Assembly (NCBI RefSeq): GCF_988242995.1
Contig: NZ_OZ547043.1
Reading direction: 5' to 3' (one strand)
Length of the DNA stretch: 64,000 nt
A program made the translations under genes and the position numbers. Every line of letters starts with the position of its first letter. Within the stretch, counting starts at the first letter, position 1. This document shows, in pieces, positions 99-36,132 of this stretch. The notes under the pieces were generated by a model. That model saw only the letters and a list, made by a program, of their open reading frames with translations. It searched no databases and was not told the origin of the DNA.

Positions 99-1274
<1,176 letters not shown>

Positions 1275-1513: not shown

Positions 1514-2920
1514 TTAATCCAGCCATTCAGTATGGAACACACCTTCTTTATCAGTACGCTTATAGGTATGCGCACCAAAGTAGTCACGTTGAGCCTGGAT
1601 CAGGTTAGCCGGCAATACGGCTGCACGGTAGCTGTCGTAGTAGGCAACGGCAGCAGAGAAGGTCGGTACCGGGATGCCATTTTGAACCGCGTAAGCAACA
1701 ACATCACGTAACGCCTGCTGATACTCATCAGCGATATTCTTGAAGTACGGATCCAGCAGCAGGTTAGCAATACCCGCATTCTTCGCGTAGGCATCGGTGA
1801 TCTTCTGCAGGAACTGCGCACGAATAATGCAGCCGGCACGGAAAATCTTCGCGATCTCACCGTAATTCAGATCCCAGTGGTACTCGTCAGACGCTGCGCG
1901 CAACTGAGAGAAACCTTGTGCATAGGAAACAATTTTACCGAGATACAGCGCACGGCGTACTTTCTCAATAAACTCAACTTTGTCACCCGCAGGGTGCGCT
2001 TTCGGACCAGTCAGGACCTTAGAGGCAGCAACGCGCTGATCTTTCAGTGAGGAGATGTAACGCGCAAAGACCGATTCAGTAATCAGCGACAGCGGTTCAC
2101 CGAGATCCAAAGAGCTCTGGCTGGTCCACTTACCGGTACCTTTGTTAGCCGCTTCGTCCAGAATGACATCAACAAGGTATTTACCCTCTTCATCTTTTTT
2201 GGTGAAGATGTCTTTTGTGATGTCAATCAGGTAGCTGCTCAACTCACCGTTGTTCCACTCAGTAAAGGTACTGGCCAGCTCTTCATTAGAGAGGTTCAGG
2301 CCGCCTTTCAGCAGAGAATAGGCCTCAGCGATAAGTTGCATGTCACCATATTCAATACCGTTGTGAACCATCTTCACATAGTGGCCTGCACCATCCGCAC
2401 CGATGTAAGTCACGCAAGGCTCGCCATCTTCAGCAACTGCGGCGATCTTAGTCAAAATCGGCGCAACCAGCTCGTAGGCTTCTTTCTGACCGCCCGGCAT
2501 GATAGAAGGCCCTTTCAGCGCCCCCTCTTCACCACCGGAAACGCCGGTGCCAATGAAGTTGAAACCTTCAGCGGAAAGTTCGCGGTTACGACGAATGGTG
2601 TCCTGGAAGAAAGTATTGCCACCATCAATAATGATGTCGCCTTTATCCAGATACGGTTTCAGAGAATCAATGGCTGCATCGGTACCCGCGCCTGCTTTCA
2701 CCATTAACAGGATACGACGAGGCGTTTCGAGGGATTCAACGAACTCTTTCACCGTGTAGTAAGGCACCAGTTTCTTGCCCGGGTTCTCGGCAATCACTTC
2801 TTCGGTCTTTTCACGGGAGCGGTTGAACACGGAGACGGTATAACCACGGCTCTCGATGTTGAGCGCCAGGTTGCGCCCCATCACTGCCATGCCGACGACG
2901 CCGATCTGTTGCTTGGACAT
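1514..2920 (-). CDS. gnd: 6-phosphogluconate dehydrogenase, decarboxylating
   Basis: 468-aa ORF; [30 protein letters not shown] is the conserved Gnd N-terminus; correct length. Confidence 0.95.
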
Positions 2921-3100
2921 TACATACTCCTGTCAGGTGTGGTCACCGCGCGACGTATGCGCGGCTTGAATGTATAGCAAATGTTAACCTATGTCCGTTT
3001 GAAAAAAAACGAAAATCAATTTAACGAATGTCGGAAATAGGTAACCAGTTGCTGTTTCATAACATATGCTGCGCTCCGATAAATACTTATTCTCTGTTAT

Positions 3101-3967
3101 TCACTTTCCAATTAATTGAAATAAATATTGACCATACTGTGTTTTCTCCATAATCCTGGCCTCAGTCAGGACCTGCTCCGCAGTCAGCCATTTATTGCGC
3201 AAAGCTATTTCTTCTAAGCAAGCAACTTTATATCCTTGACGCTTTTCGATAGTATGAACAAATTGAGAAGCTTCAATAAGGCTATCATGTGTTCCCGTAT
3301 CCAACCAAGCGAACCCCCTTCCCAAGAGTTCTACATTAAGCATATCCCGCTCAAGATACATTTTATTTATTGAAGTGATTTCAAGCTCACCACGAGGAGA
3401 TGGTTTAACTTGCTTTGCAAAATCCACCACCTGATTATCATAGAAATAGAGTCCAGTTATGGCCCAATTAGATTTTGGTGTTTGTGGCTTCTCTTCGACA
3501 GAGAGCACCTTAAATGATTCGTCAAATTCTACAATGCCAAATCGTTCAGGATCCATAACCTGATAGCCAAAAACTGTAGCTCCTCTTTTTCTGGAAGCCA
3601 CCTGTTCCAGTTTGCGACCGAAACTTTGACCGAAGAAAATATTATCCCCTAAAACCAGGGCACATTCATCACCAGCGATGAACTCTTCACCAATAATAAA
3701 AGCCTGCGCCAACCCATCAGGACTTGGTTGAATAGCATATTGAAGGTTAATTCCAAACCGGGATCCGTCTCCTAGCAGGCGTTTATACGATGATAAGTCC
3801 TCGGGAGTAGAAATAAGAAGTATATCTTTTATCCCTGCCAGCATTAATACTGAAATAGGGTAATATACCATTGGCTTATCATAAATAGGTAGGAGCTGTT
3901 TTGATACCCCTCGAGTAATCGGATAAAGTCGGGTACCAGAACCTCCCGCTAATATAATTCCTTTCAT
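3101..3967 (-). CDS. rmlA: Glucose-1-phosphate thymidylyltransferase
   Basis: 288 aa; [46 protein letters not shown] is the RmlA/RfbA nucleotidyltransferase signature. Confidence 0.85.
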
Positions 3968-4111
3968 TGCTTACCTTCTCTATATAATCTTCAAATATTA
4001 TCGCATTAACTTTTAAGTAAATTTTAAAAATGCAGTGCAATAAACATTCAGTTTAAATAAGCTTGACATTAGAAATATCTCCAGCTTATTTACTTGTATT
4101 AAATGTCACAT

Positions 4112-4642
4112 TTAATCTAATTTTTTTAGGTATGTCGCTGGAGTGCCGCCTACTAATTCCTTTTCACCGACATCTTTTAGAACTACAGAATTTGCTGCAA
4201 CTATAGCTCCATTGTTAATAACAATAGGTCCCAAAATAACAGATCCAGTGGCCAATATAACATCGTTGCCAATAACAGGACGAAGTTCCTTGTTATATTT
4301 CATATCAAGTGTTTTTGCACCAATAGTGACATTTTGATATATAGTGCAGTTTTCACCTATACGCGCCGCACCGATAACTATGCCAAAGGTATGTGGTATG
4401 AAAAGTCCACCTTTAATCTCACATTCAGTTGCGATCTCAATGTTAAAAATGAGGACGTTTAAAAGTGAACAACATTTTGATATTCTTCTGAATCCTTTTT
4501 CTTTTAAAGAATAGGATGTCCTATATATTACATTGGGAATCAAACGAGGGCTAAAAATTCTAAAATAGTCTTTAAATTTAAAAGCAGATTCATTCCCAAT
4601 CAATTCTTTATATCTTTGAATATCTTGTTGTATATTTTTCAT
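4112..4642 (-). CDS. Hexapeptide-repeat O-acetyltransferase (CysE/LacA/WbbJ-like)
   Basis: 176 aa; left-handed beta-helix hexapeptide repeats (IGAARIGENCTIYQNVTIGAK, IGNDVILATGSVILGPIVINNGAIVAANSVV). Confidence 0.7.
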   Translation of the reverse strand: MKNIQQDIQRYKELIGNESAFKFKDYFRIFSPRLIPNVIYRTSYSLKEKGFRRISKCCSLLNVLIFNIEIATECEIKGGLFIPHTFGIVIGAARIGENCTIYQNVTIGAKTLDMKYNKELRPVIGNDVILATGSVILGPIVINNGAIVAANSVVLKDVGEKELVGGTPATYLKKLD

Positions 4643-5699
4643 TTTTTATTCCTGCGTATCCTGCTAAAAACACCAGATATAGCCAAAACATAGGGAAAAG
4701 GAAGGTTAGTTTAAGGCAGGGGAGCAGGCATAATAACATCAATCTAAGTGAGAATCGTGAATATTTTAGGAACAATACCAGCCATGATACACTAAGGATA
4801 CTGCCTAACCAAAAGCCAAAAACGATGAAATTACTTCCGAATAACGTCATATCAAAAAGAGACTGAAAATAGTCTGGTGCATTGTCATAATACCCAACCA
4901 TACCGTGGCCAATATTAAAAACAAGAGGGCTATCAAAGAATGATTTCATCAACTCAAGTTTATATGATGTGCTACCATCACTACCAGATGAAATATAAGA
5001 CATACGCCACATAATGTTTTGATATATTATCGGAGAAACCAGTACTAACGATATTAACCCGGTTGCGATCCACTTTAGTGTCAATCTACAGGTAAGAATA
5101 AAAAATAACATAACGCAGATAACAGAGAAAGTCGAACCGGATAACACCATACACATTAATGCTATATAACTTAGTAATGAGTTATTATTAGCTACAATAT
5201 ACCTCATCACTAATAATGTGACCATATGTATAGAGAAAATACTCGGTTCGGCAAATACTCCTGTTGCTCTGTAATCGAAACCGTCATAACTGCTACGGTG
5301 TGGAGGACCTAACAAGAACTTCCCATAATCGATATCCACATTAATGATTTTGAAAGCTAAATACTGCAACAGGAAAGTAAAAATGTGAAACTTGATGCAA
5401 AAATCGATCACCTTAAGCCAGTCACAGCTTTTAATTCTTTTTACACAATAGCTATAGATTGATGGTACTGTCAATGCATAAAAGCAGCATACCAAAGTAA
5501 AAATAAATATTTTATCCACTACGCCAAAGAATACATGAAAAATAAGCGATGTGAACGATACCAGAATAAATATCAACCCTTGCGATGAAACCTTACATTT
5601 ACCCTGTATAAACACCAGAAAAAAAACGCAAAACTGAATAATAAAAAAAACCGGACTAAAAATGAAAAGAGTACCAAAAAGAAAATATATATTAGCCAT
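4608..5699 (-). CDS. wzy: O-antigen polymerase
   Basis: 363-aa very hydrophobic, AT-rich, multi-spanning membrane protein with a large internal loop, located in an O-antigen cluster; no close sequence recognised, as is typical for Wzy. Confidence 0.55.
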   Translation of the reverse strand: MANIYFLFGTLFIFSPVFFIIQFCVFFLVFIQGKCKVSSQGLIFILVSFTSLIFHVFFGVVDKIFIFTLVCCFYALTVPSIYSYCVKRIKSCDWLKVIDFCIKFHIFTFLLQYLAFKIINVDIDYGKFLLGPPHRSSYDGFDYRATGVFAEPSIFSIHMVTLLVMRYIVANNNSLLSYIALMCMVLSGSTFSVICVMLFFILTCRLTLKWIATGLISLVLVSPIIYQNIMWRMSYISSGSDGSTSYKLELMKSFFDSPLVFNIGHGMVGYYDNAPDYFQSLFDMTLFGSNFIVFGFWLGSILSVSWLVLFLKYSRFSLRLMLLCLLPCLKLTFLFPMFWLYLVFLAGYAGIKNEKYTTRYSKI

Positions 5700-6669
5700 T
5701 TCTTTCCCTTTTTGAATAACCCTCTATATAATACATAGCCAAGACTAACTTGTAAAATATTGCTCTGATTTTAAATTTATTCCTATTGTCTAACTTATTA
5801 AGAACAACCCTTACAAATTTATTAAGTTTAATACTATTAGCGCAAGACAAAGCTACTCTAAGCACAGTTGACTTCATACTACCTTTCCGCTCAGCCTGGG
5901 GAAATAGCAATTTATCTACAATTTCAGGATGTTTCTTAACCAAAAGCGGTACTGAGTACCTTGCATAAGGAATCATTCTTTCACATGCCCTATCGAGGGT
6001 AGGGGTGTCGTTATCGTAGAGTAAAGCATCGCTACAAAAGAAAAACGGAACAGAGCTTAAACGAAGCCGCGCCCCAAATTCTTCATCCTCACAACCATAA
6101 TGCCGGAATGATTCATCGAACCCTTTCTGTGCTTCAAACTCGGATTTGCTAATCAGGAAAGCATCGCTTGCAAAGTAGCGATACTCAATTTTAACAGTTC
6201 CTTTATATCTATTCCCCAAATATCGGGAGTCAAAGTAGTGTAGGTAATTGCTGTCGCGGGTTAAATCTTGCCGACATCTGACATTAGCCCTTGCTACAAA
6301 AGGCTTCTCGCAGGACAAAATCATTGAATGCAGGCTATCAAGACAACCTTGCTGGAGCAAATTGTCTATGTCGACAAAAAATAACCATTCATTGCTTGCT
6401 GATTTCGCAGCTCTATTTCGAGAAAAGGCGCGACCTTCATTTATTTCATTACGTAAGAACACTAACCGCCATTCGCGCTCATTAAATTTTTCAGAAAAGG
6501 CAATAGTTGTGTCTTCCAAATTCACCTCAGAACCGTCATCGATGATGATAAGTTCAATATTCTTTAGTATATTCTTTTGTCCATGAGTATTAGCGAGCAG
6601 AGCTGAGATGAAAGTTTCTACTTTTGATGAGCTACCGAGAACAGGGCTAATAATGCTAATCATTTGCAC
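5692..6669 (-). CDS. Family 2 glycosyltransferase
   Basis: 325 aa; N-terminal ISIISPVLGSS...ELIIIDDGS matches the GT-A nucleotide-sugar binding and DxD region. Confidence 0.75.
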   Translation of the reverse strand: MQMISIISPVLGSSSKVETFISALLANTHGQKNILKNIELIIIDDGSEVNLEDTTIAFSEKFNEREWRLVFLRNEINEGRAFSRNRAAKSASNEWLFFVDIDNLLQQGCLDSLHSMILSCEKPFVARANVRCRQDLTRDSNYLHYFDSRYLGNRYKGTVKIEYRYFASDAFLISKSEFEAQKGFDESFRHYGCEDEEFGARLRLSSVPFFFCSDALLYDNDTPTLDRACERMIPYARYSVPLLVKKHPEIVDKLLFPQAERKGSMKSTVLRVALSCANSIKLNKFVRVVLNKLDNRNKFKIRAIFYKLVLAMYYIEGYSKRERNG

Positions 6670-7918
6670 GTTCCATTAAATATTTTTTAGTTACAGTTAA
6701 ATACCAATAGATTGAAACTAATATTGAAAAGAAAAGAGAAATATATAATGCAATAAAGATGCTTGGTATCGGCGCAGTAATAGCAGAGACTTTCAATGCG
6801 CTATAGATGCTCAGACATAATAAAAATACAAGACACCATTTAATGGTGTAATAGTAGTAACTCTTTGATGCAAGGTTAGCTGCGTTGATCAAATTATCGA
6901 CAGCAAAAAATGGCAACAAAAAGACCAGAATATTATAATAATTTGCCGATGTGACATAGTCATGGCCGAAAACAAATGTAAAGATATATGGTGTAAATGG
7001 CTTTAACGAAAATGAGAATAACGAAAAAGCAGTAAACATTATTATGGATAAGACAATAAGATTTCTGTTGAAAATTTTCCACTTCTTGTTTTTGTATAAA
7101 AGGATGGGGGCCAAAACCTGTATCAATATTAAGGTTACTGAAGCTGTATTCTCATTAATCTGTGATGCAGCACTATATATACCATAATCAACTGGTGAAA
7201 TGTTACCTTTCAGTAAGAATCTGTCAATTTTCATAAATAATGCATAGGCTACAACCCCTCCCCAGATGAAAAAACTGCGTTTTAACAGGAAGCCTATATC
7301 ATTTAGTCTAACAAGACTTATTCTGGGGAACTTACAAATTGAACAACAGTACATGACTATCGCAACAAAAATGCCCTCCAGTACCCATGGCAATGCAAGG
7401 AACTTGATATCGAAATTTATCACTATAAATAAGTAATATAGTGTTAGTATCCTGATAATGCAGCCAAAGATCTGGATGATACCTGAGAGGTATAATTTCC
7501 CTTCAGATTGCCATTTTGCAAAGCCTACCATCAATGGCTCTCGTGCCAAGAGAGTAACGGACGAAAATAGCAAGTAATACCTTACAATCTCACTTTCAGC
7601 TGTAATTGCGAGGATTACACTGACAGTAGCGACTAATGATGATACAGATAATCTTGCAAAAAAAATTGTATTACAATAAATCAATTTCTTGCGTAATGAA
7701 TAGCGCGATAACTGAGGGACAACTGATTCTGACCCGCACATCCAAGTTAGTGACATTAAAATATTTGAAAAAGTAAATGCATATTGCCAAATGCCAAACT
7801 GCTCAATTGGAAGCGCTTTTGAGATAAGATGGTTAGCATAAATAGCACTAATAATCTGTACAAATCGCTCAAACAACAGGACAAGCAATCCCGCAATAAT
7901 TGATTTATTCACGAACAC
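6656..7918 (-). CDS. wzx: O-antigen flippase
   Basis: 420-aa polytopic membrane protein (about 12 hydrophobic segments) of the polysaccharide-transporter type, located in the O-antigen cluster. Confidence 0.7.
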   Translation of the reverse strand: MFVNKSIIAGLLVLLFERFVQIISAIYANHLISKALPIEQFGIWQYAFTFSNILMSLTWMCGSESVVPQLSRYSLRKKLIYCNTIFFARLSVSSLVATVSVILAITAESEIVRYYLLFSSVTLLAREPLMVGFAKWQSEGKLYLSGIIQIFGCIIRILTLYYLFIVINFDIKFLALPWVLEGIFVAIVMYCCSICKFPRISLVRLNDIGFLLKRSFFIWGGVVAYALFMKIDRFLLKGNISPVDYGIYSAASQINENTASVTLILIQVLAPILLYKNKKWKIFNRNLIVLSIIMFTAFSLFSFSLKPFTPYIFTFVFGHDYVTSANYYNILVFLLPFFAVDNLINAANLASKSYYYYTIKWCLVFLLCLSIYSALKVSAITAPIPSIFIALYISLFFSILVSIYWYLTVTKKYLMERAND

Positions 7919-8903
7919 CTTCCGGTGAGATTATTTTTTTCACCCATTGCTGTAAAGAATATTGTTCTCTATTTTTGTAATTAACATTCGGTGCGTTAAT
8001 AAAATTCTCAGGTACTATGACCTGATGTCTTTTTACTACGCAGATCATATTAGGGTCATAAAAATCGTACTTTTTTATGTCTTCATTCGTGGTAATAATT
8101 TTTTTATTTAACCCGATGCATTCTATTGTTCGCATTGTCAGACCGCGCTGCCTTGGATGATGAATATCGATGATAATTTCAGAGCACTTCATCATTTCAA
8201 CAACTTCAGATTGTGATAATGGTTCAAATTCTACGTCTGTATTTATTTTTTTTCCGCTTAATAAATTCTTCAGTTTAAAAATAATTTCATTCTGAAAATA
8301 AAAGAATGTATAAGCATTAATGTCTTTAATATTTCTTACTTCAGCAGTAATGCAATTGACCAAATCAACGCGATCTGAATGAGCTGTACCGATAAAACAA
8401 AGATCGTATTTTAGCGAATGCTCATGCTTATTGTCAAAACGCGGCGAATAAAACAGCGGAAGAAATGTTACTCCCCATTTTTCAGCATCATCACGTTCAA
8501 AGGTGAAAACCGAATCAAACTGATTTATTATTCTTTTAACTTTGGGTTTGTTATTGACCGAATCCCACAAATACATAATGAATTTACAGTGTTCATTTTT
8601 TACTTTAACGGTTTTTTTTATGGCCTGTAAAATTTCATGATCAATTGCTTCAGGATTTAAAATAAATACATTATCGATTTTTTTGTTGACAATTTGCCGT
8701 AGTAATTTTTTATAATAACTTGAGTTATACTTTTTAATCAAAATACTACAACCTAACCTTAGCAATGATTTATAAATAGCATTATTGCTCGGCCGCTCAT
8801 CCCAATAGATAACGTCATTAGTTAATTCTAATTCTTTGACTATTTCTTTTTCATAATTAAAAAACTTGGGAGAAATAAACAATACTGTATTTTTGTACCC
8901 CAT
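7905..8903 (-). CDS. Hypothetical protein, candidate glycosyltransferase of unrecognised family
   Basis: 332-aa soluble ORF, AT-rich, overlaps wzx start by 14 nt (operonic). No motif I can assign; context suggests the second sugar transferase of the O-unit. Confidence 0.45.
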   Translation of the reverse strand: MGYKNTVLFISPKFFNYEKEIVKELELTNDVIYWDERPSNNAIYKSLLRLGCSILIKKYNSSYYKKLLRQIVNKKIDNVFILNPEAIDHEILQAIKKTVKVKNEHCKFIMYLWDSVNNKPKVKRIINQFDSVFTFERDDAEKWGVTFLPLFYSPRFDNKHEHSLKYDLCFIGTAHSDRVDLVNCITAEVRNIKDINAYTFFYFQNEIIFKLKNLLSGKKINTDVEFEPLSQSEVVEMMKCSEIIIDIHHPRQRGLTMRTIECIGLNKKIITTNEDIKKYDFYDPNMICVVKRHQVIVPENFINAPNVNYKNREQYSLQQWVKKIISPEGVRE

Positions 8904-8904
8904 T

Positions 8905-9720
8905 TTATCTTCCCTGAGATTTTTTGAATTCTTTTATCATATCCACTAAATCATTCAATACATTTTTATAATGATGTGGGACTATTGAGTTAGTTTTTTG
9001 CATCGTGATAACAGGAAATGTTTCGCATGTATCATTCTTGTGCCACTGTATATTACAACCTGTTTCAGATATTAAAATGTCAGCGATGGATTTTGCTGAA
9101 ACATTATATCCAGATGCAATGTTATAAATATCTCCGGGTGAAGTTATAGATTCTGCTAGCTTATACATGACGGCAACCACATCATCTACCGATACATAAT
9201 CCTTCTCGTAGTCAGAGCTAACATACATATCGACATGATTGTTATTGATTGCATTTTTTATTATTTGCGGAAGGAATAACGGGCTATTTAGTGCGAGTCC
9301 ATAAACATTTGATGGTCGGACGACCACAACGTTCTTTTTACTTCTTAGACATAACTCTTCAGCAACCAATTTTGTCAAATTGAAAAGCTTGCGACCATCA
9401 TTGTGACAAATTTTTAGATCTGAATTTTCTGCAGAATCTCTGGAGTTCAAATATACACGAGTGGAAGAAATGTAGACTAATTTCTGGAAATTAGCTTGTG
9501 TAAGTATTACTTTTAGCTTATTGACATTTGCATCCACAACATTATAGGCATCACTTTTGCAATCGCCATAGCCTGCGCAATAAAAGACGGTACCAAGGTC
9601 AATTTCTTTGTTATAAAGATAGTCTCTGTCAGGGCAGAAACATTCTTTATTCATTGATTCTAAAAATGTTACCATATGTGAACCAATGAAACCTGAACTA
9701 CCAACGACTGTATACTTCAT
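8905..9720 (-). CDS. NAD(P)-dependent sugar epimerase/reductase (SDR family), candidate dTDP-4-keto-6-deoxyhexose 4-reductase
   Basis: 271 aa; N-terminal Rossmann motif VVGSSGFIGSHMV; lies between the rmlC-like gene and the orphan ORF; does not resemble canonical RmlD. Confidence 0.55.
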   Translation of the reverse strand: MKYTVVGSSGFIGSHMVTFLESMNKECFCPDRDYLYNKEIDLGTVFYCAGYGDCKSDAYNVVDANVNKLKVILTQANFQKLVYISSTRVYLNSRDSAENSDLKICHNDGRKLFNLTKLVAEELCLRSKKNVVVVRPSNVYGLALNSPLFLPQIIKNAINNNHVDMYVSSDYEKDYVSVDDVVAVMYKLAESITSPGDIYNIASGYNVSAKSIADILISETGCNIQWHKNDTCETFPVITMQKTNSIVPHHYKNVLNDLVDMIKEFKKSQGR

Positions 9721-9782
9721 AATACTATAGCCTTTTGCTCTATGTATTAATAATGACAGGAAGCTAATTTAAACTGTTATGC

Positions 9783-10325
9783 TTATAAGCTAGCTTCTTT
9801 AAATTCTGAAAAACTAATTAACGCGTTGTCTTTAGATGACATAATTGGCATGTCTATCGGCCATTGTATATTCAGTTCTTTGTCATTCCAGATTATCCCC
9901 CCTTCATCGGTAGGATCATAGAAGTCTGTGCATTTGTAATGGAAATCCGCATACTCACTTAATACACAAAAACCATGTGCAAATCCAGGTGGGATATAGA
10001 TTTGATTATTTTTATCCCCAGAAAGTATAACACCTACATGCTTTCCAAAAGACGAAGATCCAGGTCTTAAATCAACAGCCACATCAAAAACTTCTCCACT
10101 GATGACACTTACTAATTTACCTTGAGGATTATTTTTTTGAAAATGTAAACCTCGAAGCACATTTCTTGCTGAGCGTGATCGATTATCTTGTACAAATGCC
10201 TCAGTTATTCCTATGTCGTGATATTTCTTCTGATGCCATGCTTCCAAAAAGAAACCACGAGAGTCACCAAAGACTTTTGGCTCAATGATTACACAACCAG
10301 CAAGTGGAGTCTCAATTACCTTCAT
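9783..10325 (-). CDS. rmlC: dTDP-4-dehydrorhamnose 3,5-epimerase family protein
   Basis: 180 aa; cupin-fold RmlC motifs EPKVFGDSRGFF, NVLRGLHFQ, GFAHGF. Confidence 0.8.
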   Translation of the reverse strand: MKVIETPLAGCVIIEPKVFGDSRGFFLEAWHQKKYHDIGITEAFVQDNRSRSARNVLRGLHFQKNNPQGKLVSVISGEVFDVAVDLRPGSSSFGKHVGVILSGDKNNQIYIPPGFAHGFCVLSEYADFHYKCTDFYDPTDEGGIIWNDKELNIQWPIDMPIMSSKDNALISFSEFKEASL

Positions 10326-10396
10326 AATTATAAACCTTGTATTATATTTTTTAAATTTGCTAATTTTTGATACAATTTAGCTACCTTTATCAGTTA

Positions 10397-11479
10397 CTAA
10401 CGCATCTTGTAGTTCTGCTCAATCCAGGTTTGGTACGCCCCACTTTTGATATTTTCAACCCATGAGGTGTTTGCCAGATACCATTCAACCGTTTTGCGAA
10501 TCCCACTTTCGAACGTCTCTTGCGGTTTCCAACCGAGCTCACGGCTGATTTTATCCGCATCGATCGCGTATCGACGGTCATGGCCTGGACGATCGGCAAC
10601 ATAGGTGATTTGTTCACGGTATGACACTGCTTTAGGTACGATCTCATCCAGCAGGTCGCAGATGGTATGTACAACATCGAGATTTTTCTTCTCGTTATGG
10701 CCACCGATGTTGTAGGTCTCACCAGGGATTCCTTTCGTCACCACGGTATATAACGCACGGGCATGGTCTTCAACATAGAGCCAGTCGCGAATCTGATCGC
10801 CTTTACCATAAATGGGTAACGATTTCCCTTCGAGAGCATTGAGAATAACCAAGGGAATCAACTTTTCAGGGAAATGGTATGGGCCATAGTTATTCGAACA
10901 GTTGGTCACCATTGTTGGAAGACCGTATGTACGCAGCCAGGCACGAACGAGATGGTCGCTGGAGGCTTTTGAAGCCGAATAAGGACTACTCGGCGCATAG
11001 GCGGTTTGTTCCGTGAAGAGAGGAAGAATACTCCCCTGCGCAACCTCATCCGGATGCGGTAAATCCCCATAAACTTCATCAGTAGAGATGTGATGGAAGC
11101 GGAATGTCGCCTTTCGCGCACTATCCAGTGAGGACCAGTATTGACGGGCTGTTTCTAAAAGAACATAAGTACCCACAATATTCGTTTCAATAAATGCAGC
11201 AGGGCCTGTAATTGAACGGTCAACATGGCTTTCAGCAGCCAGGTGCATCACTGCATCCGGCTGATGCTGAGAAAAAATTCGCGCCATTGCAGCAGCATCG
11301 CAAATATCCGCATGTTCAAAAACATAGCGTTCAGAATCAGAAACATCAGCAAGTGATTCCAGGTTTCCGGCGTACGTTAATTTATCGACATTAACAACAC
11401 TATCCTGCGTATTATTTATAATGTGACGAACTACAGCAGAACCAATAAATCCTGCGCCACCAGTAACAAGTATCTTCAC
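10397..11479 (-). CDS. rmlB: dTDP-glucose 4,6-dehydratase
   Basis: 360 aa; [43 protein letters not shown] matches RmlB/RfbB almost residue-for-residue. Confidence 0.92.
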
Positions 11480-11553
11480 TTATTTATTCCATATAACTTC
11501 AGAGCATGCTGTGAAATAAGCGGCTCTTAGGTTGATTAATAGAGGTGTTAATG

Positions 11554-11592
11554 CACGCTACCGCCCCTGGCTTTACAGCTACCAGAGCACTA
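11554..11592 (-). promoter_or_regulatory. JUMPstart element with ops site (RfaH-dependent antitermination) upstream of the O-antigen operon
   Basis: Minus-strand reading is cagtgctctggtagctgtaaagccaggggcGGCGGTAGCGTG; the ops core GGCGGTAGCGTG is the reverse complement of 11554-11565. Confidence 0.8.
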
Positions 11593-11850
11593 CATGCATG
11601 TCTACGATGTGACGAGCGTTACCCACTCGCGCTAAACCCGAAAAATTCAAACGCTAATTGTCTTACCAATCCGCTCTGGAAACAAGGAAAATCCTGGAAA
11701 ACTTTGACTAAAATCCTATTGCTAACTCGTTGTTATTCTGATTGTTTATATAAAACAACGGCAGGAATATTCGCAACAAATTACTTTCGCCACGAATCTT
11801 CACTGTCGTTATAATTTTCTTATCAACCGTTACATCCGGTCAGATTTTCA

Positions 11851-12744
11851 TTATTCGCTTAACAGCTTCTCAATCCCTTTACGGAACTTCGCCCCTTCTT
11901 TGAGGTTGCGTAGTCCATACTTCACAAATGCCTGCATATAACCCATTTTTTTACCGCAGTCGTAACTGTCCCCAGTCATCAGCATGGCATCAACGGACTG
12001 TTTTTTCGCCAGCTCGGCAATAGCATCAGTCAGCTGAATACGTCCCCATGCACCAGGCTGAGTACGTTCCAGTTCCGGCCAAATATCGGCAGAAAGCACA
12101 TAGCGACCAACGGCCATGATGTCTGAGTCCAGCGTCTGCGGCTGATCCGGTTTTTCGATAAATTCGACGATGCGGCTGACTTTACCTTCACGATCCAGTG
12201 GTTCTTTGGTCTGAATGACGGAGTATTCAGAGAGGTCACCCGGCATACGTTTTGCCAGCACCTGGCTGCGGCCCGTTTCATTGAAGCGCGCAATCATGGC
12301 AGCAAGGTTGTAGCGCAGCGGGTCGGCACTGGCGTCGTCGATCACAACGTCCGGCAATACCACAACAAATGGGTTGTCACCAATGGCGGGTCGTGCACAC
12401 AAAATGGAGTGGCCTAAACCTAAAGGTTCGCCCTGACGCACGTTCATAATGGTCACGCCCGGCGGACAGATGGACTGTACTTCCGCCAGCAGCTGACGCT
12501 TCACGCGCAGTTCAAGGAGAGATTCTAATTCATAAGAGGTGTCGAAGTGGTTTTCGACCGCGTTTTTGGACGCGTGAGTTACCAGGAGGATTTCTTTGAT
12601 CCCTGCAGCCACAATCTCGTCAACAATGTACTGAATCATTGGCTTGTCGACGATCGGTAGCATCTCTTTGGGAATCGCCTTAGTAGCAGGCAACATATGC
12701 ATCCCTAGACCCGCTACAGGAATAACTGCTTTTAAATTCGTCAT
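11851..12744 (-). CDS. galF: UTP-glucose-1-phosphate uridylyltransferase-like regulatory subunit
   Basis: ORF track gives 11851-12756; conserved GalF N-terminus [44 protein letters not shown] starts at the internal Met (12744). Confidence 0.9.
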
Positions 12745-36093: not shown

Positions 36094-36132
36094 CACGCTA
36101 CCGCCCCTGGCTTTTTAGCTACCAATACACTG
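36094..36132 (-). promoter_or_regulatory. JUMPstart element with ops site in the colanic acid operon leader
   Basis: Minus-strand reading is cagtgtattggtagctaaaaagccaggggcGGCGGTAGCGTG; near-identical to the O-antigen JUMPstart at 11554-11592. Confidence 0.8.

Follow-up and report, generated by a model that had tools for sequence, protein, structure and literature searches.

The terminal rmlA of an Escherichia coli S88-variant O45 O-antigen operon and its probable origin as the end gene of an rmlB-less block

Two genes of dTDP-sugar synthesis lie at opposite ends of the O-antigen operon described here – rmlB opens it and rmlA closes it – and the question is how rmlA came to be there. The first-pass annotation of the window (the whole stretch of 64,000 nucleotides that was analysed) placed rmlA at the 3' end of the operon beside gnd, about 6 kb from rmlB, and took it to have been displaced from a contiguous rmlBDAC set in the course of mosaic assembly by recombination. 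The placement is correct: an intact RmlA, recognised by TIGR01207, is encoded 6,429 nt after the rmlB stop codon, and gnd begins 180 nt downstream of rmlA. The reading that we favour, with a probability of roughly 80%, is that this is the S88-variant operon, that rmlA is last in it as the end gene of an rmlB-less eight-gene cassette, and that the cassette most likely arrived by a two-step transfer.

Throughout the leftmost 17 kb of the window, every gene runs on the minus strand. The features that bear on the question are as follows, from the upstream flank to the downstream flank.

Upstream of galF, minus strand: wcaK, wcaL and wcaM
11851–12744, minus strand: galF, the E. coli-type upstream flank (TIGR01105, 685 bits; 91–99% nucleotide identity to O109 and O45 strains)
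11555–11565, minus strand: ops element GGCGGTAGCGT (JUMPstart) in the operon leader, an exact match 76 nt upstream of rmlB
10397–11479, minus strand: rmlB, directly after galF and the ops element (PRK10084, 773 bits; body 95–99% identical to contig L011)
11198–11213: crossover 1, from E. coli-type to Citrobacter-like sequence inside rmlB (informative sites)
10405–10409: junction between Citrobacter-like rmlB and the Morganellaceae-related block (three-way alignment)
3078–10404, minus strand: imported eight-gene O-unit block from rmlC to rmlA, without rmlB (blastn collinearity)
9783–10325, minus strand: rmlC, dTDP-4-dehydrorhamnose 3,5-epimerase (TIGR01221, 247.6 bits)
8905–9720, minus strand: 271-aa Tll-like SDR reductase (PF01370)
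7905–8903, minus strand: WaaS/CpsH-family glycosyltransferase (NF053598, 295 bits)
6656–7918, minus strand: wzx flippase, S88 variant O45 family (RefSeq annotation of S88)
5692–6663, minus strand: family 2 glycosyltransferase, GT2 (PF00535; RefSeq annotation)
4608–5699, minus strand: wzy O-antigen polymerase (RefSeq annotation)
4112–4642, minus strand: hexapeptide-repeat O-acetyltransferase (PF00132; NF041874, 114 bits, under the cut-off)
3101–3967, minus strand: rmlA, glucose-1-phosphate thymidylyltransferase (TIGR01207, 504 bits)
2945–3077, minus strand: orphan spacer from the end of the block to the gnd leader, matching no comparator in the alignment
1514–2920, minus strand: gnd, Citrobacter amalonaticus-like except for its last ~35 nt (nucleotide identity to contig L020)
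1541–1554: crossover 2, where the 3' end of gnd turns from Citrobacter-like to E. coli-type (informative sites)
99–1265, minus strand: ugd, the E. coli-type downstream flank (nucleotide identity to O45 and O109 strains)

The gene content thus agrees with the first-pass annotation in having rmlB first, rmlA last, and wzx, wzy and transferases between them, but that account overlooked rmlC, the Tll-like reductase and the acetyltransferase, and there is no rmlD. Within the block, adjacent genes overlap or are separated by at most 71 nt, except for the acetyltransferase and rmlA, which are 144 nt apart.

The operon differs from the canonical rmlBDAC set of E. coli, Salmonella and Citrobacter in more than the position of rmlA. 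The two share RmlA, RmlB and RmlC, which carry out the first three pathway steps, and rmlB and rmlC are adjacent here, but rmlA is 6.4 kb from rmlB, rmlD is missing – no protein reaches TIGR01214, and there is no rmlD remnant – and a Tll-like reductase is encoded instead. This 271-aa SDR protein scores 25.4 on PF04321 (the RmlD substrate-binding domain), under the cut-off of 27, and has 49% and 58% amino acid identity to the reductases encoded beside rmlC in O45 and O109, respectively; one source names it 'dTDP-6-deoxy-D-xylo-4-hexulose reductase'. With a Tll-type 4-reductase gene beside rmlC and no rmlD, this is a cluster of the dTDP-6-deoxy-L-talose type rather than a rhamnose set, and its sugar product is predicted to be dTDP-6-deoxy-L-talose, giving 6-deoxy-L-talose in place of the L-rhamnose of the canonical set. 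RmlA would convert Glc-1-P to dTDP-Glc, RmlB would dehydrate this to dTDP-4-keto-6-deoxy-Glc, RmlC would epimerise it to dTDP-6-deoxy-L-lyxo-4-hexulose, and the Tll-like reductase would then yield dTDP-6-deoxy-L-talose. Because these are soluble enzymes working in sequence, gene order is irrelevant to the chemistry, and the position of rmlA should be functionally neutral. The O45 antigen contains 6-deoxy-L-talose (PMC7685785); an 'O45-related' 6dTal polysaccharide is credited to Jann et al. 1995 (cited in PMC7685785), and the definition of Tll function to Nakano et al. 2000 (cited in PMC7198725).

The locus is the known S88-variant O45 O-antigen operon. Window positions 2921–11850 (8,930 nt) are 100% identical to E. 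coli S88 (O45:K1:H7; NC_011742), so that there is no sequence difference from the S88 variant O45 cluster, and S88 carries the same set of genes between galF and gnd (given as ten). Both the gene content and the serotype-specific wzx and wzy are those of the S88 variant. The complete cluster is present in 36 of the 5426 complete E. coli genomes and is identical in all 36, so the arrangement is not an accident of assembly. Plainvert et al. 2007 (J Bacteriol 189:8528, as cited in PMC7685785 and PMC3416823) already made the sequence and the order of its genes public, and the position of rmlA is therefore not new. The O antigen that the cluster encodes is that of a neonatal-meningitis clone. In its abstract, the original 2007 description is said to have judged from gnd that the cluster was acquired at least partly from another member of the Enterobacteriaceae, and its title reportedly gives the O antigen a key role in virulence. 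What is added here to the published cluster is modest – the mosaic and its breakpoints mapped at base resolution (E. coli / Citrobacter-like / Morganellaceae-related / Citrobacter-like / E. coli), a C. amalonaticus-like source for the body of rmlB and for gnd, and relatives of the central block in Morganella and Proteus. A mosaic of three sources with such relatives is a useful refinement of a well-understood kind.

Gene order in other E. coli clusters was compared by means of a published survey (PMC4732683) and direct inspection of O45 and O109. [quoted passage not shown] Separation of rmlA from rmlB is thus common, and a terminal rmlA recurs within the 6-deoxy-talose family. The reference O45 cluster (strain 2011C-4251) reads rfbB, four FucNAc-related genes, rfbC, tll, wzx, a glycosyltransferase gene, wzy, an acetyltransferase gene, a second glycosyltransferase gene, rfbA, glycosyl-hydrolase remnants and gnd. 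Like the S88 cluster, it has rmlB first and rmlA last, with rmlA 11 kb from rmlB, and it shares with S88 and with the Enterobacter cloacae complex the module order rmlC-tll-wzx-GT-wzy-acetyltransferase. Unlike S88, it has four extra genes after rmlB, including one for the MraY-family initiating transferase for D-FucNAc, and glycosyl-hydrolase remnants between rfbA and gnd; its WaaS-type glycosyltransferase gene follows the acetyltransferase gene, whereas that of S88 follows tll. The amino acid identity between the two is 81% for RmlA, 74% for RmlC, 49% for Tll, 43% for the O-acetyltransferase, 41% for GT2, 36% for the other glycosyltransferase and 27% for Wzx, and wzy is the only gene without a homolog. 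With sequence identities this low, S88 and reference O45 are distant relatives, not variants of one cluster.

One E. cloacae-complex genome has the O45-type order with rmlA last, and its hydrolase gene is intact; E. cloacae O16 and E. coli O45 are described as near-identical in gene order (PMC7198725). Other relatives are arranged differently. The O109 cluster begins with rfbB-rfbA and has rfbC-tll near its 3' end, while Buttiauxella sp. A111 and one further enterobacterial contig share the core from tll to the acetyltransferase gene and have rmlB-rmlA after gnd.

Relatives of the block as a whole are found in the Morganellaceae. The block has eight genes in the order rmlC-tll-GT-wzx-GT2-wzy-acetyltransferase-rmlA, and all eight recur in Morganella morganii and Proteus mirabilis with their order and sizes kept, rmlA being last in both. 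By blastn, window positions 10400–3078 align to M. morganii (contigs L008 and L010) as one collinear block at 90.06% identity over 7,323 nt, and positions 10338–3113 align collinearly to P. mirabilis (L004 and L007) at 76.8% over 7,266 nt. Gene by gene, nucleotide identity to Morganella ranges only from 0.887 to 0.919, with rmlA at 0.918, and this evenness indicates that rmlA has diverged together with its neighbours in the block. A search of the Morganella and Proteus loci with RmlB (tblastn) found neither rmlB nor a remnant of it, which rules out a simple truncation of rmlB there. This fits what is known of Proteus, in which 60 O-antigen gene clusters were surveyed and rmlB was found in none (Yu et al. 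2017, PMC5560731); the Proteus clusters for dTDP-sugars have rmlA and rmlC but never rmlB (PMC5560731).

The genomic settings of the two copies differ. The P. mirabilis block is in the native O-locus between cpxA and secB, beside ugd, cysE, gpsA and secB – a different chromosomal locus from that of S88, with no adjoining rmlB or gnd, and with a lower GC content (0.29). In M. morganii the block and a wzz gene lie on an island with AlpA and IS genes at one end, a P4-type integrase at the opposite end, and no tRNA nearby. The GC content of the block there is 0.33, against 0.46 in the flanks, and on both grounds the block looks foreign in M. morganii. Being only 90% identical to the Morganella copy, the block cannot have come directly from either Morganella or Proteus as the immediate donor. 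Relatives of Wzy were few: the only homologs were those of P. mirabilis (78%) and Buttiauxella (69%), together with one further sequence cluster (57%), and a scan of contigs with Wzy found no relatives in a collection with one genome per species, in which serotype-specific clusters are easily missed.

In the window, this block is set between sequences of two other origins, and three sharp breakpoints were mapped. Identity to an E. coli O109-type strain is 91–100% in 100-nt windows across galF and on into rmlB for ~270 nt; from nucleotide ~275 of rmlB to its end, identity is instead to a Citrobacter-like contig, L011 (92–99% in 100-nt windows). The GC3 of rmlB does not form the simple gradient that was expected, with 0.29 in the E. 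coli-type 5' segment and 0.49 in the Citrobacter-like body. Among the E. coli genomes, only the 36 of S88 type match the 3' 804 nt of rmlB at 99% identity or more; against every other E. coli rfbB, the identity of this segment does not exceed 78.5%. The closest RmlB proteins (94–96% amino acid identity) include sequences from Citrobacter amalonaticus, and the contigs that encode these closest proteins, L011 included, carry a canonical galF-rmlB-rmlD-rmlA-rmlC cluster.

At the other end, gnd is mostly 97–100% identical in 100-nt windows to L020, a contig of the same Citrobacter-like genome as L011, with four windows at 0.86–0.93, whereas its identity to the E. coli O45 and O109 strains is only 80–92%; in 5,342 E. 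coli genomes, gnd is 80–90% identical to this one. Beyond gnd, ugd is again like that of the O45 and O109 strains (86–100% per 100-nt window, mostly 94–100%). Informative sites switch cleanly between the two types at 11213/11198 in rmlB and at 1554/1541 in the 3' end of gnd. The Citrobacter-like contigs are only 92% identical to the contig encoding the RmlB that NCBI names C. amalonaticus, so the source can be labelled no more finely than C. amalonaticus-like.

The third breakpoint is at the end of rmlB. Identity to L011 ends at ...CAGAACTA, window position 10409, and identity to M. morganii L008 starts at ~10406 (...ATG.GTTAGTAACTG), 6–12 nt before the rmlB stop codon. The Citrobacter-like homology stops where the Morganella homology starts, which points to a single illegitimate joint, and the last three codons of rmlB together with its stop codon thus derive from the left edge of the block. 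The Morganella homology ends 23 nt past the rmlA stop codon, at 3078. The next ~130 nt (3077–2945) match no comparator, with matches in other E. coli starting only near 2988, and the Citrobacter-like gnd leader starts next.

From the gene identities, collinearity, breakpoints and composition, all of which are directly observed, we infer the direction and order of the transfers. In the first step, the cassette would have been joined to a resident rmlB by illegitimate recombination in a C. amalonaticus-like enterobacterium, at a joint 6–12 nt before the rmlB stop codon, and would have replaced everything between rmlB and gnd. In the second step, the hybrid (~9.66 kb, from window position ~11205 to ~1548) would have entered E. 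coli by homologous recombination, with crossovers at nucleotide ~275 of rmlB and ~35 nt before the gnd stop codon. The first step is reconstructed from the flanks only, since the complete hybrid cluster did not turn up in any Citrobacter genome. The fuller history – a Morganellaceae-type rmlB-less cassette crossing between families to meet a Citrobacter rmlB, and the hybrid then passing into the E. coli ST95 meningitis lineage – has about an even chance of being right; if it is, the locus would offer a tangible instance of an O-antigen cassette that is portable but draws on the rmlB of its recipient. The locus is an example of the rebuilding of O-antigen loci out of modules that need an rmlB already in place.

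The transfer could also have run the other way. The cluster, rmlB included, could have arisen at the galF-gnd locus of an Enterobacteriaceae member, with the Morganellaceae later taking only the stretch from rmlC to rmlA and dropping rmlB because they kept an rmlB elsewhere in the genome. The foreign look of the block in M. morganii (IS elements, AlpA, an integrase, and GC of 0.33 against 0.46) would suit such a history, as would the wide distribution of related 6dTal clusters in the Enterobacteriaceae (O45, O109, the E. cloacae complex and Buttiauxella). However, the Citrobacter identity ends at 10409 and the Morganella identity starts at ~10406, which is expected of one joining event but would be a coincidence under later excision. 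The GC content of the block, 0.31–0.41, is also far under that of the Citrobacter-like flanks (a GC3 of 0.49 in the rmlB body and 0.57 in gnd) and is nearest to that of the Proteus copy in its native locus, and O-antigen clusters lacking rmlB are the rule in Proteus (PMC5560731). The reverse direction is therefore unlikely, although it is the strongest of the alternatives.

Composition also ties rmlA to the block. Its GC3 is 0.325, next to 0.318 for the genes from rmlC through the acetyltransferase gene, and compared with 0.487 in the rmlB body, 0.571 in gnd and 0.588 in the E. coli flank. Its relative synonymous codon usage (RSCU) correlates with that of the central block (r = 0.63) and not with that of the rmlB body (0.07), gnd (−0.03) or the E. 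coli flank (−0.17). GC3 and RSCU agree in putting rmlA with the central genes, not with rmlB. The comparison of GC and codon usage that the first-pass annotation had proposed thus separates rmlA from rmlB, and its broader suggestion of a mosaic made by recombination is borne out by this contrast of rmlA and the block with the rmlB body and gnd, and by the three breakpoints. It had set against a mosaic the possibility that the arrangement is common among typed clusters and that the genes share one compositional signature. On these terms the outcome is split: the order does recur, in reference O45, the E. cloacae complex, Proteus and Morganella, yet the compositional signature of rmlA is not that of rmlB.

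Within the block, the 144-nt gap before rmlA is wider than the other junctions (at most 71 nt), and the overall GC content of rmlA (0.41) is above that of its neighbours (0.31–0.39), which might mean that rmlA joined the end of the cassette on its own and later than the other genes, possibly with a promoter of its own. However, M. morganii has 140 nt at this place and P. mirabilis 143 nt, so that any separate addition predates all three copies; the divergence of rmlA equals that of the block; no promoter consensus turned up on the coding strand when the gap was scanned; and genes for conserved enzymes are usually higher in GC, as is also seen in O45 rfbA. A separate addition is highly improbable.

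No more credible is a local rearrangement, in which insertion of wzx, wzy and transferase genes would have split an E. coli rmlBDAC or rmlBA set and pushed rmlA to the 3' end: rmlBDAC is the commonest set in E. coli (49 clusters; PMC4732683) and the 5' end of rmlB is typical E. coli sequence, but rmlA is less than 70% identical in nucleotide sequence to all other E. coli rmlA and rffH copies, is collinear and equally diverged with the seven genes upstream of it in rmlB-less Morganella and Proteus loci, and has the codon usage of the central block rather than that of rmlB, and there is neither rmlD nor a remnant of it.

The rmlA allele itself encodes a full-length RmlA of 288 aa, which TIGR01207 scores at 504.4 bits (cut-off 360.65; residues 2–286 on model positions 1–285 of 286) and PF00483 at 258 bits. 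On the enterobacterial RfbA sub-model PRK15480 (NF012024), it scores 454.8 bits, under the cut-off of 588, which fits a divergent allele of non-E. coli type. Among complete E. coli genomes, the 36 of S88 type alone carry the allele at 99% nucleotide identity or above. The nearest RmlA proteins in a large protein collection are those of M. morganii (94% amino acid identity) and P. mirabilis (93%). The claim that rmlA was displaced from an rmlBDAC set is thus not upheld – there is no rmlD, the gene is unlike the E. coli copies, and it is terminal in the Morganella and Proteus block – and the terminal position appears to have been inherited with a mobile cassette lacking rmlB. A departure from the rmlBDAC order need not mean a local rearrangement, and caution is needed in reading one from it.

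The operon has the leader expected of RfaH-regulated clusters. The ops element, which works in RfaH antitermination, is on the coding strand between galF and rmlB, and the rml and tll genes are probably co-transcribed from a promoter upstream of ops/JUMPstart. Expression of the distal rmlA is accordingly expected to depend on read-through from this leader. An independent rmlA promoter in the 144-nt gap was considered and dropped, since the scan there was empty and the gap is kept in Morganella and Proteus as well. Around rmlA as a whole, the scan found neither a promoter nor a terminator consensus on the coding strand, only one weak intragenic hairpin. Every complete E. coli genome with a match to rmlA also has at least one further rmlA-like gene, presumably the rffH of the ECA cluster, and with a second such gene in every matching genome, some redundancy of rmlA is likely.

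The eight-gene O-unit block of the window, rmlC to rmlA, is also found in Morganella morganii (L008:1–13517 and L009), together with wzz. There the block and wzz are flanked by AlpA, IS3 and IS110-remnant genes and by a P4-type integrase, and the locus adjoins pepE, an rfaH-like gene and tatC. The GC content of the block is 0.33, versus 0.46 in the flanks, and there is no tRNA within 20 kb. The M. morganii locus looks like an O-antigen cassette carried by an integrative island.

A short spacer lies near gnd in the window cluster:

Window 2945–3077: spacer that follows the Morganella-type block and precedes the Citrobacter-like gnd leader.

These ca. 130 nt have no match to any of the comparator sequences, and by megablast, similarity to other E. 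coli starts only near window position 2988. The spacer may be the scar of an intermediate host or of an earlier cluster.

In the E. coli reference O45 cluster, the interval between rfbA and gnd contains fragments of a family-1 glycosyl hydrolase (GH1) gene (L002:21386–22500). At this position, a genome of the Enterobacter cloacae complex whose cluster is ordered in the same way encodes an intact GH1 protein of 490 amino acids (L022:10934–12406) – a difference that suggests an Enterobacter-like donor for the reference O45 cluster as well.

Buttiauxella sp. A111 (L016:5977–15254) and another enterobacterial contig (L021:411–10867) carry a related 6-deoxy-talose-type gene set, which in Buttiauxella has the gene order of the window cluster: tll, a glycosyltransferase gene, wzx, GT2, wzy and an acetyltransferase gene. 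In both, rmlB-rmlA lies downstream of gnd, which is a third placement of the rml genes within one cluster family.

The 5’ ca. 280 nt of rmlB (window 11198–11479), common to other E. coli, have a GC3 of just 0.29, compared with the higher value of 0.49 in the Citrobacter-like rmlB body; this widely shared 5’ end is thus itself compositionally atypical. In E. coli strain 51489 (H126; NZ_CM135151.1 2706844–2708703), an S88-type rmlB is interrupted by an IS1A insertion, and the strain may be O-rough or reliant on rffG.

A further perfect ops element in the window probably belongs to the colanic acid operon leader, which precedes the wca genes:

Window 36095–36105, minus strand: second perfect ops element, GGCGGTAGCGT.
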